Source of the DNA: a virus
Taxonomy: Duplodnaviria > Heunggongvirae > Uroviricota > Caudoviricetes
DNA length: 7,144 nucleotides
Direction: 5' to 3' (one strand)
IMG/VR virus record: IMGVR_UViG_2703718811_000004
Shown: one piece after another, positions 2,315 to 4,975 of the stretch
How positions within the stretch are numbered: the first letter of the stretch is position 1
How the letters are laid out: each line of letters begins with the position of its first letter
Translations under genes and position numbers: made by a program
The notes under the pieces: generated by a model
The model's input: the letters and a program-made list of their open reading frames with translations, nothing else
What the model was told of the DNA's origin: nothing
Database searches by the model: none

Positions 2315-3517
2315 TTACCAGCCGACAGACATACCCGCAGCAACACCTGAACCGTTCTGGGTATCCCATGAAGCATTCAAACGTACAGCAGAATTTTCAG
2401 TGGTGCGGAAGTGCATACCTGCTGCGATAGCCTGCTCATCACGGTAGTTACTTGCAGCCATACCAAAGGAGTACGTTTTACCCTCAACAACAGGAATGGC
2501 AGTCATCGCCATTGCTCCTGCAATACCTGCATCTGCACGTTTACGGTTTTTCTCCACCTCATCACGTAACTGACGGAATTGCTGATTAGTACTACGCTCC
2601 AGGGTACTGACCCGGTTATCTGTGTAGGTATTAGCAGACTTCAGTGTCTGTGCATCACCCTGAATACGGGCATTCTCTTCTGCAATACGATAGCGCTCTA
2701 ACTGACCATAGGTTGCGGCATCCGCAGCCTGAACACCATCACGAAGCCCACCAATTACACGATTCCCCACATTAACTTCATCGGGGCGAGTGGTCTGAGA
2801 GTTAGCCCCTACAGCAACACTGTTCGTATGGTTTGCAATGGCGTTGTAACCGACAGCAGTGGCGTTTTCTCCGCCTGCCGTTGCCCCGCCACCAACCTGA
2901 GTTTTACCGGTGCCCAGAGATGACAGACGGGCGTGAATATCTGTTACATCTGCAGCAGAAAGACCAGTGTCAATAGTGGCTCCATATTGCACAGCCTTCA
3001 TTTTAATTTCATAAATATATTCACTGATTTCAGGAATATGTCTTGAATATGTTTTTCCATCAGCGCCTACAGTCGAGACAACTCCTTCGCCATCTGCACT
3101 AAACAGAATTTGCTTGGTTTTTGTGTTTACAAAATAAGCTGTCTCATTCGCGTAATCATAATAAGAGACGATGTCTCCCCTTGGAGCAGCTAACTCGGTA
3201 TCTGTCAGGCCAGCCTTACCATAATCAATTAAGGTATATTTCAAATATTTACCGGAAACAGCGTCTATATTTAATGAGGTTGGTGTATTCCCGTCAAGAG
3301 AAATAACCTTACCATTCTCAAGCTTAATTAATGGATATCCATCTTGTTTATATACACCGATACCTTTCAAGAAATCCGCATGCTTTATTGCATTACTATT
3401 CAGAGTTTCAGGTGTAACGGAATAACCACTGGCATACGCCCCGACAGAAAATACCGACAGGCTTAATGCCGGCATTAAAGCCAACAATAGCTTGCTTGCC
3501 TTTTTCATGATTTTCAT
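2315..3517 (-). CDS. Trimeric autotransporter adhesin (YadA/Eib family), 400 aa: signal peptide, atypical N-terminal domain, short YadA-like head/neck repeats, coiled-coil stalk, C-terminal YadA membrane anchor.
   Basis: ORF-track protein. N-terminus MKIMKKASKLLLALMPALSLSVFSVGAYA is a Sec-type signal peptide. Head-repeat-like motifs ATAVGYNAIANHTNSVAVGANSQTT and neck-like DEVNVGNRVIGGLRDGVQAADAATYGQLE. Charged heptad-like stalk (RYRIAEENARIQGDAQTLK...RQLRDEVEKNRKRADAG). C-terminus AGIAGAMAMTAIP...YSFGMAASNYRDEQAIAAGMHFR...GVAAGMSVGW matches the YadA anchor pattern ending in GxSVGW. SD-like AAGGG about 8 nt upstream of ATG 3517. Family assignment is from memory of YadA/Eib sequences. Confidence 0.9.
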   Translation of the reverse strand: MKIMKKASKLLLALMPALSLSVFSVGAYASGYSVTPETLNSNAIKHADFLKGIGVYKQDGYPLIKLENGKVISLDGNTPTSLNIDAVSGKYLKYTLIDYGKAGLTDTELAAPRGDIVSYYDYANETAYFVNTKTKQILFSADGEGVVSTVGADGKTYSRHIPEISEYIYEIKMKAVQYGATIDTGLSAADVTDIHARLSSLGTGKTQVGGGATAGGENATAVGYNAIANHTNSVAVGANSQTTRPDEVNVGNRVIGGLRDGVQAADAATYGQLERYRIAEENARIQGDAQTLKSANTYTDNRVSTLERSTNQQFRQLRDEVEKNRKRADAGIAGAMAMTAIPVVEGKTYSFGMAASNYRDEQAIAAGMHFRTTENSAVRLNASWDTQNGSGVAAGMSVGW

Positions 3518-3780
3518 GATGTGTACCCTTATGTTAAATCATGTTATAAATATGTTGACATTCGGAACGCAAATGTCTTCAGGGATACTACTCACAATAA
3601 CAAGGCAAATAAAATATTAAAATCAATGAGTTAAGAAAAATTAACAATTAAAATCACAAGGATGCAATACGCATCAAAAACTTCCCCTAAATAACACCAG
3701 TATTACTCAGAAAAAACAAAACATTTTCTGTAGTTATTATTTACCATTGATAAATATTACCTCTCTCTGTCAGCCTGCAT
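3518..3780 (-). promoter_or_regulatory. AT-rich upstream regulatory region of the adhesin gene (putative promoter and 5'UTR; plausible target for nucleoid-protein silencing).
   Basis: Very AT-rich non-coding stretch (e.g. caaggcaaataaaatattaaaatcaatgagttaagaaaaattaacaattaaaatcacaag) directly upstream of the adhesin start. Candidate sigma70-like elements on the minus strand are TTGCGT then about 19 nt then TATAAC, ending about 25 nt before the ATG. No ORF of 60 aa or more on either strand. Promoter position not verified. Confidence 0.3.
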
Positions 3781-3837
3781 TGTATAAAACATACTCTGCA
3801 AACAGGTGCCATATCGGCTGAACCTCAGCAACCAGTT

Positions 3838-3859
3838 GACGGGGACTTTCGTCCCCGTC
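3838..3859 (-). other. Perfect stem-loop (9-bp GC-rich stem; loop GAAA on the minus-strand transcript) 10 nt downstream of the Hok-like stop codon.
   Basis: Plus strand gacggggac-tttc-gtccccgtc (3838-3859). On the minus-strand RNA the loop is GAAA, a GNRA-type tetraloop. No U-tract follows on the minus strand, so it is more likely a structural or processing element than a canonical terminator. Confidence 0.5.
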
Positions 3860-3868
3860 GCGGTTTTC

Positions 3869-4009
3869 CTACTGCTTACACTGTAAGAACGCCGCAAACT
3901 CCGCTCCCCACAAATTCAGCCGGAACTCACACAGTGAACCGTGCAACATCCAGATAGTGAAGATAACCGTCATACAAATTGTGACGGTGATAAGCGATTT
4001 TTGCGACAT
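3869..4009 (-). CDS. Hok/Gef-family type I toxin-like small membrane peptide, 46 aa.
   Basis: Manual translation from ATG (plus 4007-4009) to TAG (plus 3869-3871): MSQKSLITVTICMTVIFTIWMLHGSLCEFRLNLWGAEFAAFLQCKQ. It has a single N-terminal hydrophobic helix followed by the family-typical SLCE motif and a C-terminal E-x-AAF-x-x-C-K pattern (compare Hok/HokA-type peptides recalled from memory). Strong SD AAGGAG (plus 4019-4024) 9 nt upstream of the ATG. Below the ORF track's 60-aa threshold. Confidence 0.7.
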   Translation of the reverse strand: MSQKSLITVTICMTVIFTIWMLHGSLCEFRLNLWGAEFAAFLQCKQ

Positions 4010-4048
4010 AGCGCTTGACTCCTTTTACAGAGAGGCGCTAATCTTCTA

Positions 4049-4108
4049 CTTGCTTAAGGTATGATGGTCAGGGCCTCGGGTTAACGTTAAGTTGACTCGG
4101 GGCCTTTC
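4049..4108 (+). ncRNA. Candidate Sok-like antisense RNA (about 60 nt), complementary to the leader of the hok-like mRNA.
   Basis: Plus-strand promoter-like elements: -35 TTGACT (4015-4020, overlapping the hok SD on the opposite strand), 16-nt spacer, -10 GCTAAT (4037-4042), predicted start near 4049. Imperfect hairpin ggcctcggg (4072-4080) / ctcggggcc (4096-4104) with two G-U pairs, followed by TTT (4105-4107). Entirely sequence-based inference. Confidence 0.3.
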
Positions 4109-4163
4109 CACATCAGGCCTTCAGGTTCTCCCTCCAGCCATCAGCCGAAAGGCACCCACGCAT

Positions 4164-4192
4164 AATTTACGGTTTTTGCCCTGTACGGGCAA
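4164..4192 (-). promoter_or_regulatory. Candidate promoter of the hok-like transcript.
   Basis: Minus strand: -35 TTGCCC (plus 4187-4192), 17-nt spacer, -10 TAAATT (plus 4164-4169). The predicted start near 4156 coincides with the 5' fold-back element. Weak match to consensus. Confidence 0.3.
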
Positions 4193-4217
4193 TAAAAAAC
4201 CCGCCATCACAGCGGGT
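4191..4217 (-). terminator. Rho-independent terminator downstream of the lom-family gene.
   Basis: Minus-strand RNA: stem ACCCGC / GCGGGU (plus 4199-4204 paired with 4212-4217), 7-nt loop, then UUUUUAUU (complement of plus 4191-4198). Begins 24 nt after the lom stop codon (4241-4243). Confidence 0.6.
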
Positions 4218-4240
4218 AGTAAACGGTTACCGGATACAGG

Positions 4241-4975
4241 TCAGAATTTCAGGCCAATGCCAGCAGTAACGCCACTCGTGCGCCAGTCGCCAGAGCCGGA
4301 ACCTTCGTAAGCCACATCCAGTGTAACACTCTCATTCAGGTTAAACTGTGCACCTGCAGCCCACGCAAGGGAGGTTTTTTTCGTGCTGTTGCTTTCAGAA
4401 AATCCGCCACTACTGTTAATATTGTCCTTAATTTTCAGGTCAGCGCTAACTTTAGCAACGCCCATCCCTGCCATCGCATATAAACTCATGTACTGATTAA
4501 CCCGCCATGAAGGCCCCGCTAACAGACTCCAGTAATTCGCCCTGATATCCGTTCTGGCAGAAGCTGCCGGATTCTTAATCTTCCTGGTATGATCGGCTGA
4601 CTGCACATCAATAAATGTCTGTGAGTTAGTGAGAGAACGCGTCCATGTAAAAGAGGTGATAACGCCAAAATCATCCGTTATCTCGTAGCGATACCTGATA
4701 TTAATGCCCTGTGGATTTTTATCCTTGCCTTCATATCCACTGACCCGACCATCTGTATATTCGCCCAATGAAGAAAAGTAGTTTCTGTTGACGAAATGAC
4801 TGAAAGTCTCCCTGTTATGAGCAGTCGCATCCTTTACAAAATCCTTCAGTCCCGGAAACTGAAAGTGCGCATACCCCAGAGAAATTGTATGGTTTCCTTC
4901 TGCTGCATGTGCAGATAAATTTACACAGGCAATCCCGGAGATTGCACACACAACCAGTGTTGCTATACTCTTCAT
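4241..4975 (-). CDS. lom: Lom/Ail/PagC (OmpX) family outer-membrane beta-barrel protein, 244 aa.
   Basis: ORF-track protein with signal peptide MKSIATLVVCAISGIACVNLSAHA. C-terminus VAYEGSGSGDWRTSGVTAGIGLKF closely matches lambda Lom's C-terminal AYEGSGSGDWRTDGFIVGVGYKF (from memory), with a terminal aromatic residue. SD AGGA about 6 nt upstream of the ATG. Longer than lambda Lom (about 206 aa), so probably has extended loops. Confidence 0.9.
   Translation of the reverse strand: MKSIATLVVCAISGIACVNLSAHAAEGNHTISLGYAHFQFPGLKDFVKDATAHNRETFSHFVNRNYFSSLGEYTDGRVSGYEGKDKNPQGINIRYRYEITDDFGVITSFTWTRSLTNSQTFIDVQSADHTRKIKNPAASARTDIRANYWSLLAGPSWRVNQYMSLYAMAGMGVAKVSADLKIKDNINSSGGFSESNSTKKTSLAWAAGAQFNLNESVTLDVAYEGSGSGDWRTSGVTAGIGLKF

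Follow-up and report, generated by a model that had tools for sequence, protein, structure and literature searches.

In a 7,144-nt stretch of DNA from a Caudoviricetes record (IMG/VR IMGVR_UViG_2703718811_000004; the whole stretch that was analysed is referred to as the window), a small hok-like open reading frame (ORF) on the minus strand is bracketed by two sequence elements that are inverted copies of each other. This raises the question whether these elements are the two ends of a toxin mRNA that folds back on itself, in the manner of tac and fbi in R1 hok, or whether the repeat has another role or no role. A sequence-only reading had proposed hok-type fold-back, in which a full-length transcript is kept translationally inert until its 3' end is processed, and our computational follow-up supports the fold-back. 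Specifically, we consider it very likely that the two elements mark the ends of an approximately 354-nt hok-family type I toxin mRNA, one of them tac-like (5') and the other fbi-like (3'); by analogy with R1 hok, we infer that such an RNA would be inert until 3' processing.

The locus and its toxin gene

The genes around the locus comprise a tail tip fibre gene, two small genes and an Ail/Lom gene, followed by the hok-like locus and a YadA-like gene. The setting is the moron/tail region of a lambdoid prophage, with the hok-like locus positioned between lom and the YadA-like gene. The left 2.3 kb of the window, where no ORFs were listed and an anomaly had been suspected, corresponds to a large LPD5-domain gene that runs off the window edge and is absent from the ORF list.

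The ORF between the two elements had been called a Hok-like toxin from the letters alone, and database searches agree with this call. The predicted 46-aa protein scores 33.2 bits against Pfam HOK_GEF (PF01848; cut-off 22) and matches PHROG 251 with E = 2.8e-24, and in a 100%-identical E. coli genome its RefSeq label is 'Hok/Gef family protein' (WP_000078907.1). The best named NCBIfam match is HokA (NF007290) at 38.4 bits; the equivalog cut-off of that model is 89 and the toxin is not HokA, because its score falls far below this value. In phage records the 46-aa ORF carries 'MokW-like' labels, which reflect the family name of PHROG 251 only.

The leader also has a counterpart in Rfam. The covariance model RF01794 gives 33.9 bits (E = 7.6e-5), which is below its gathering score of 59, and model positions 1-157 align over their full length to minus-strand 4157..3996, position 1 coinciding with 4157. 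This model is named 'sok' and in practice represents the hok mRNA leader; its consensus has the orientation of hok. The features of the locus are compiled in Table 1.

Table 1. Features of the hok-like locus, in the order in which the predicted mRNA (minus strand) would be read, followed by the predicted antisense RNA gene
Feature	Position	Strand	Basis
Candidate hok-like mRNA promoter: -35 TTGCCC (4192-4187), 17-nt spacer, -10 TAAATT (4169-4164)	4164..4192	-	sequence reading
5' arm (tac-like), predicted transcript start G4157	4141..4157	-	RF01794 position 1, homology edge, pairing
Local 5'-arm partner, transient/metastable 5' hairpin with 4152-4143	4130..4139	-	fold of the 3'-shortened RNA
ucb-like box, alternative 5'-arm partner (GAAAGGCCCC with GGUGCCUUUC)	4099..4108	-	inverted repeat, RNAalifold
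GAGGC box, at the position of the R1 mok Shine-Dalgarno, no mok ORF behind it	4073..4077	-	conserved CGAGGCC
Second long-range helix, 5' strand; complementary to the predicted antisense RNA 5' tail	4046..4060	-	MFE, covariation
dcb-like GCCUC (4036-4032), overlapping anti-SD CUCU (4032-4029)	4029..4036	-	conservation, folds
hok Shine-Dalgarno GGAG, 9 nt before AUG	4019..4022	-	sequence
hok-like toxin ORF, 46 aa (MSQKSLITVTICMTVIFTIWMLHGSLCEFRLNLWGAEFAAFLQCKQ)	3869..4009	-	ORF list, Pfam, PHROG, RefSeq
Stable 3' stem-loop GACGGGGAC-GAAA-GUCCCCGUC, predicted processed mRNA 3' end	3838..3859	-	perfect 9-bp inverted repeat
Second long-range helix, 3' strand; part of the removable tail	3822..3835	-	MFE, covariation
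3' arm (fbi-like), predicted full-length 3' end near 3804	3804..3821	-	pairing, shuffles, homology edge
Predicted Sok-like antisense RNA gene: -35 TTGACT (4015-4020), -10 TAATCT (4039-4044)	4015..4112	+	sequence reading

Pairing between the ends of the predicted mRNA

Both strings are present where the sequence-only reading had placed them (cagccgaaaggcacc at plus 4142-4156 and ggtgccatatcggctg at plus 3805-3820). Their complementarity had been described as 6+6 bp. For the outer part this is correct (GGTGCC 3805-3810 / GGCACC 4151-4156), while the inner arm is a perfect repeat of 8 nt instead of 6 (TCGGCTGA 3814-3821 / TCAGCCGA 4141-4148), as determined by inverted-repeat search. In addition, on the minus-strand RNA the helix is closed by a wobble pair, G4157.U3804. 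The end helix as we define it, 4157-4141 with 3821-3804, consists of this G.U pair, 6 bp, a 2x3-nt internal loop and 8 bp, which gives 15 pairs in total.

Lone 6-mer inverted matches are frequent in this DNA (45 pairs in 561 nt). The complete arm behaves differently: the best duplex of the 5' 17-mer against the 441 nt downstream has an energy of -27.6 kcal/mol, a value that only 3/2000 dinucleotide-preserving shuffles of this downstream sequence attained. Within 4260..3700 every other long-range 17-mer duplex is weaker. When the minus-strand RNA 4157..3805 was folded, the check that the sequence-only reading had called for, the end pairing was present in both the MFE and the centroid structures (z = -6.1). 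The probability of the end-helix pairs remained at 0.87-1.0 with the assumed transcript ends shifted outward by up to approximately 100 nt.

The candidate -10 box, TAAATT, is situated 6 nt upstream of G4157, in keeping with the spacing noted earlier, and among homologs it is conserved as TAAATT, TAGATT, TACATT or TAGAAT. The candidate promoter matches 8/12 positions and is sub-threshold in the promoter scan, which returned no promoter at threshold on either strand. The promoters that we name on both strands are sub-threshold readings, backed by conservation and by analogy to R1.

Conservation of the end pairing among homologs

Homologs of the locus are present in 198 phage records, 34 plasmids and 1750/5426 complete E. 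coli genomes, and a single E. coli genome can have up to 9 copies of the element; in EHEC Sakai a match spans NC_002695.2 1292467-1292828. The approximately 354-bp module follows lom in some records, and elsewhere it sits between gpJ and a tail-fibre gene, follows ogr in P2-like phages, is carried by IncI1 plasmids or neighbours ykgM. For distant relatives (78-81% identity), BLAST and local alignments start at 4157 and end at 3805; therefore, the two arms constitute the edges of a conserved block. A protein-guided contig scan gave 5 loci only, three of them on contigs labelled non-enterobacterial, and among these loci only the copy from S. enterica subsp. diarizonae is really divergent.

Each of the 25 homologous transcripts was folded whole and all of them (25/25) keep the pairing of their own ends: the first 17 nt pair with the final 30 nt at a mean probability of 0.74-0.99. 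Sequence variation in this set amounts to at least 12 versions of the 3' arm and 5 of the 5' arm, every one of which pairs with its own partner. The arm variants comprise C-to-U and A-to-G changes that yield G.U pairs and versions in which the internal loop is closed to give a continuous helix of 15-18 bp. Moreover, the IncI1 plasmid copies have a double change from G16-C to A16-U in the end helix, and the gpJ-adjacent copies share with the copy from S. enterica subsp. diarizonae the presence of matched indels. When 23 distinct transcripts were aligned with MAFFT, 92.4% of the end-helix cells were paired, compared with 25-48% when the partner was slid.

Compensatory substitutions in homologous loci, which had been suggested as a further check, were detected in the second helix of the tail (see below). 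In the end helix, however, a double-sided change was seen at only one pair, no more than in shuffles. That the end helix is without significant covariation within the subfamily is attributable to the 5' arm, which is nearly invariant in the 23 homologs. The within-subfamily support for the end helix is conservation and wobble-compatible drift, not significant covariation, and we therefore rely on alignment-free folding of each sequence and on comparison across families. RNAalifold run without constraints recovered the outer 7 bp. The inner 8 bp were not recovered from the homolog alignment, because the MAFFT alignment is ragged in the indel-rich 3' arm and because the alternative ucb pairing is invariant.

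A second long-range helix and alternative partners of the 5' arm

The full-length fold contains another long-range helix that the sequence-only reading had missed: 3835-3822 pairs with 4060-4046 and is stacked directly on the end helix. Five of its pairs show double-sided changes among the homologs, e.g. A-U/G-C (12:11), G-C/A-U (14:7) and U-A/C-G (12:8). The number of compensatory cells is 30 compared with 12.8±3.6 in shuffles, and none of 500 shuffles reaches 30; related sequences can exceed shuffles without any structure, and here the slid control agrees with the helix, with 86% of the cells paired vs 17-56% when slid. In the fold, 4052-4041 become partly single-stranded once the 3' tail is removed. 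The tails of R1-type hok and hokW also pair with their leaders (nt 118-133 and nt 115-133, respectively), and the tail-leader helix is therefore a feature of the family.

The 5' arm has two additional partners, which were judged by complementarity and conservation. Pairing with the local partner, 4139-4130, is possible for 98.2% of the cells across 23 homologs (34-70% when slid), with one-sided changes only, and pairing with the ucb-like box for 88.5% of the cells (41-68% when slid). For the latter, RNAalifold also pairs columns 8-14 with columns 47-53, i.e. the 5' arm with the ucb-like box. The 5' arm thus has three conserved and mutually exclusive partners (the 3' arm, the ucb-like box and 4139-4130), to which we ascribe its invariance.

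In the full-length MFE structure the ucb-like box (4108-4099) pairs instead with the GAGGC box (4077-4073), which is sequestered with a probability of being unpaired of approximately 0. The hok Shine-Dalgarno (SD) sequence is likewise hidden, and its P(unpaired) is ≤0.05 in the full-length and 3'-shortened folds alike. It is held by the anti-SD CUCU, which pairs with it in the full-length fold, in the shortened fold and in folds where the tac/ucb pairing was forced. The heptamer GCGCCTC in this dcb-like/anti-SD region is invariant in 23/23 homologs. Finally, the stable 3' stem-loop covaries among homologs (columns 308-316 with 325-333, RNAalifold) and is placed 34 nt before the predicted full-length 3' end.

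A predicted Sok-like antisense RNA

On the plus strand, a candidate promoter with an 18-nt spacer inside the leader region would direct synthesis of a Sok-like antisense RNA. This RNA of approximately 60 nt is predicted to start at approximately 4050-4052 and to end near 4110, with a hairpin at approximately 4070-4107 (-30 kcal/mol) and a free 5' tail of 12 nt. The key hexamer positions of its promoter are invariant in homologs and the promoter is below threshold in the scan. The predicted 5' tail can base-pair with 4060-4050, which the 3' tail of the mRNA hides. The layout parallels that of the annotated sokW of phage 933W.

Alternative explanations for the paired ends

Could the end pairing serve mainly RNA stability and/or 3'-end formation, and not translational silencing? 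The paired ends would then be shielded from RNases, or the helix would act as a giant terminator stem ahead of a pyrimidine-rich stretch. A scan for intrinsic terminators on the minus strand found no canonical terminator after 3804, and the 3' arm is followed by U/C-rich sequence both here and in the homologs (UUUAU in R1-type hok). Moreover, local pairing masks the hok SD whether the tail is present or absent, so that in silico its concealment does not depend on the tail. Such a role is, however, compatible with a tac/fbi lock, because fold-back of R1 hok mRNA has both effects, stabilisation and silencing (PMC9841398). R1-type loci also have a terminator hairpin of their own past fbi, whereas none is present downstream of the 3' arm here. 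A switch, and not just a clamp, is indicated by the conserved alternative partners of the 5' arm and by the position of the second helix over the antisense-target/leader region. Overall, we regard stability or 3'-end formation as an improbable main function of the pairing.

That the repeats instead delimit a small mobile cassette as its terminal inverted repeats, i.e. recombination or transposition ends acting at the DNA level, is a much less likely explanation. It would fit with the occurrence of the module in many genomic contexts and with homology that is bounded by the arms in the most distant comparisons. The homology, however, mostly extends 20-43 nt upstream of the 5' arm and includes the promoter. 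Approximately 10% of the paired cells in both long-range helices are G.U, which preserves pairing only on the hok-sense RNA strand. On that strand 92% (end helix) and 86% (second helix) of the cells are paired vs 82% and 75% on the opposite strand, which points to constraint at the RNA level rather than at the DNA level. In addition, the 3' arm drifts freely, with its internal loop opening or closing, while pairing stays; it is therefore unlike a repeat that is recognised by a protein. The two further conserved RNA partners of the 5' arm also speak against DNA-level ends.

A chance inverted repeat without function, for which the abundance of 6-mer matches and the lack of significant end-helix covariation within the subfamily could be cited, is the least likely reading and is effectively refuted by the shuffled duplex energies, the pairing kept in all 25 homologs despite divergent 3' arms, the covariation of the partner tail helix and the identical geometry in R1 hok and hokW.

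Absence of mok and a possible route of activation

The predicted mRNA lacks a conserved mok frame. In the window, none of the frames has a canonical start codon ahead of the hok ATG, and among the 23 homologs no conserved mok ORF was found in any of the three frames. As a positive control, the same script detects mok of R1; mokW is annotated in 933W. In 23/23 homologs an in-frame stop is present ≤9 codons upstream of hok, the upstream starts that occur in the other frames are sporadic and non-homologous, and among the homologs no conserved start codon follows the GAGGC box. With no conserved mok frame, canonical translational coupling cannot apply to the hok-like locus, and activation must therefore work directly on the hok ribosome-binding site.

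In folds of the 3'-shortened RNA the hok SD remained hidden. When the GAGGC box was forced onto GCCUC (4036-4032), the accessibility of the SD rose to 0.15-0.6. The cost of this open conformer decreases from approximately 21 kcal/mol in the full-length RNA to approximately 6.5 kcal/mol without the tail, and for the shortened RNA the tac/ucb and GAGGC/dcb conformers are 4-6.5 kcal/mol above the ground state. In these models the drop in energy on removal of the tail agrees in direction with a switch triggered by 3' processing.

From the sequence, the folds, the conservation and covariation, and the homology to hok, we infer how transcript ends, processing, switching and translational control might be arranged. 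Transcription would proceed leftward on the minus strand, beginning close to G4157 and ending close to 3804. The 34-nt 3' tail of the full-length RNA would fold back over its entire length, with 3821-3804 on the 5' end and 3835-3822 on 4060-4046. In this closed form GAGGC would be held on the ucb-like box and the hok SD on the anti-SD, and the stretch that can base-pair with the 5' tail of the Sok-like RNA would be buried. If the R1 analogy holds, slow 3' trimming to the hairpin at 3859-3838, leaving approximately 320 nt, would remove both long-range helices, the 5' arm would then switch to 4108-4099 or 4139-4130, and the leader would open. As long as the antisense RNA is available it would capture the opened mRNA, leading to destruction; once it is gone, the membrane toxin would be translated.

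As to the opening of the hok ribosome-binding site, a likely route is that the freed GAGGC box pairs with GCCUC (4036-4032) and displaces the anti-SD. A wider and more tentative proposal is that the lom-adjacent subfamily represents a mok-independent hok design, in which the GAGGC box (4077-4073), a relic mok SD, has become a purely structural relay; we consider this possible but rather doubtful. Under this proposal, trimming of the tail would allow the 5' arm to take the ucb-like box and thereby free GAGGC, and pairing of GAGGC with GCCUC would release the hok ribosome-binding site from the anti-SD. The target of the Sok-like RNA would then be the GAGGC box, which it would sequester, and not mok translation.

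Comparison with known systems

For R1 hok it has been reported that tac has fbi, ucb and transient-hairpin partners (PMC9841398, PMC3851714). We compared the locus with an R1-type hok sequence that matches plasmid records at 100%. In this RNA nt 1-7, GGCGCUU, pair with AAGCGCC ending at +396 (P ≥0.98). Both loci encode a Hok/Gef toxin, have the same spacing of the -10 box, 6 nt and G(+1), and pair nt 1-7 with the 3' end. The ucb-, SD-box- and dcb-like elements occur in the same order, and both have a tail that is paired with the leader; the antisense promoter inside the leader and the transient 5' hairpin of R1 have a candidate and a predicted counterpart here, respectively. The stable 3' hairpin of R1 ends at +360 of 396-398, i.e. 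approximately 36-38 nt from the end vs 34 nt here. In contrast, the outer arm differs at 5/7 positions on both sides (GGGUGCC here vs GGCGCUU in R1), the end helix has 15 bp compared with approximately 9 bp, the mRNA is 354 nt instead of 398 and the toxin 46 aa instead of 52, and R1 has a mok ORF whereas this locus has none.

The second system for comparison is hokW-sokW of Stx phage 933W and of the Sakai prophage Sp5, which encodes a RelF-like toxin of 51 aa (PMC8621323, Takada et al. 2021). This is also a hok-family locus in the same kind of phage with pairing between its 5' and 3' ends (GCGGGUGCUUGAGG with CCUCAA-C-GCACCCGC, P ≥0.97), and the 5' ends share GGGUGC. Unlike the present locus, hokW has an in-frame mokW; tac/fbi is not discussed in the hokW paper (PMC8621323). 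Identity of the two loci was considered and rejected, since the primers in that paper and the 933W annotation point to another locus. Specifically, the primers give MKQQKAM... and the leader GCGGGTGCTTGAGGCTATC, and hokW of 933W is annotated at 58460-58615 (locus 58460-58786), away from lom and approximately 12 kb from the lom-adjacent copy.

Other type I toxin mRNAs, whose toxin families are unrelated to Hok, are likewise controlled by long-range or alternative pairing together with processing. For dinQ of E. coli, PMC5066626 describes a primary transcript that is inert because of its structure and is activated by 5' and not 3' processing, and for aapA3 of H. pylori, as cited in PMC9841398, an inert primary transcript is converted by nucleolytic processing to the active form.

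The end-pairing lock of tac and fbi is already well understood; here it is predicted for a lom-adjacent, mok-less relative of hok, and no such lom-adjacent locus turned up in the literature that we searched. The locus is unannotated in AF125520 and AP000422; the VT2-Sakai copy lies between lom and H0145 without annotation. The data suggest that this widespread element is a complete hok-type killer module and more than a small ORF, and its lack of mok offers a natural way to examine whether hok regulation requires mok. Moreover, a Stx-converting phage of the 933W/Sp5 type has two hok loci, only one of which has been studied, and deletions of hokW only may therefore be buffered by the second locus. 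Finally, the two arms provide precise boundaries for an RNA feature (4157 to 3804) that current records omit.

Genomic contexts of the hok module

The hok module of approximately 354 bp was found in at least five unrelated contexts (loci L007, L010, L012-L015, L022, L023, L025 and L026): it follows lom, lies in the interval from gpJ to a tail-fibre gene, follows ogr in P2-like phages, is carried by IncI1 plasmids and stands beside ykgM. Across these differing contexts homology stops at the 3' end of the RNA, and the module therefore appears to be mobile as one unit. This E. coli/Salmonella-type hok locus is also present on contigs labelled Xanthomonas pisi, a Planococcaceae MAG and Vagococcus sp. 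(L017, L018 and L020), where the hok protein identity is 76-100%; these copies probably represent assembly contamination.

Stx phages of the 933W/Sp5 type carry two distinct hok loci, the lom-adjacent locus and the studied hokW/mokW/sokW locus; the former is left unannotated in both AF125520 and AP000422.

Alignment of the window with the 100%-identical genome, E. coli ST866 (L032), gave three matching pieces across 10.2 kb. In L032 the LPD5-domain gene is separated from the YadA-like gene by approximately 3 kb, with five hypothetical genes, that the window lacks, and the right end of the window lies outside the match. The spacer separating the hok locus from the YadA-like gene is AT-rich (350 nt, GC ≈0.38).

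Coordinates of features in the window and of the compared hok loci
Feature	Coordinates	Strand	Remark
YadA-like trimeric autotransporter, 400 aa	window 2315-3517	minus	head repeat and membrane anchor; directly downstream of the hok locus
Terminator-like site	window 3837-3869	plus	at the hok mRNA 3' stem-loop
Rfam RF01794 match	window 3996-4157	hok-sense	
Rfam sX5 match	window 4196-4232	minus	
Intrinsic terminator hairpin	window 4217-4199		3' of lom
Segment outside the L032 match	window 6768-7144		
lom-adjacent hok locus (L001)	VT2-Sakai 46823-47224		homologous to the window's locus
hokW/mokW/sokW (L029)	933W 58460-58786		the studied locus

RNA elements of the hok locus

No conserved mok-type reading frame was detected in any of the three frames of the lom-adjacent hok subfamily (window 4077-4009, minus strand, and A3, the alignment of hok-locus homologs). 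In R1 the GAGGC box is the mok Shine-Dalgarno sequence, whereas in this subfamily the same box is kept without a conserved mok frame.

The consensus of RF01794, which is named 'sok antitoxin', opens with the hok mRNA 5' end (GGGUGCUUGAGG...); judged by this sequence, the model is that of the hok leader and not of the antisense RNA. For sX5, an sRNA of Xanthomonas, the match is weak, at 23.4 bits against a gathering score of 50; it coincides with the terminator hairpin downstream of lom and most likely represents merely this terminator.

The hok mRNA 3' stem-loop also resembles an intrinsic terminator on the plus strand (a hairpin followed by CGGTTTTCCT), which could halt transcription arriving from the left.
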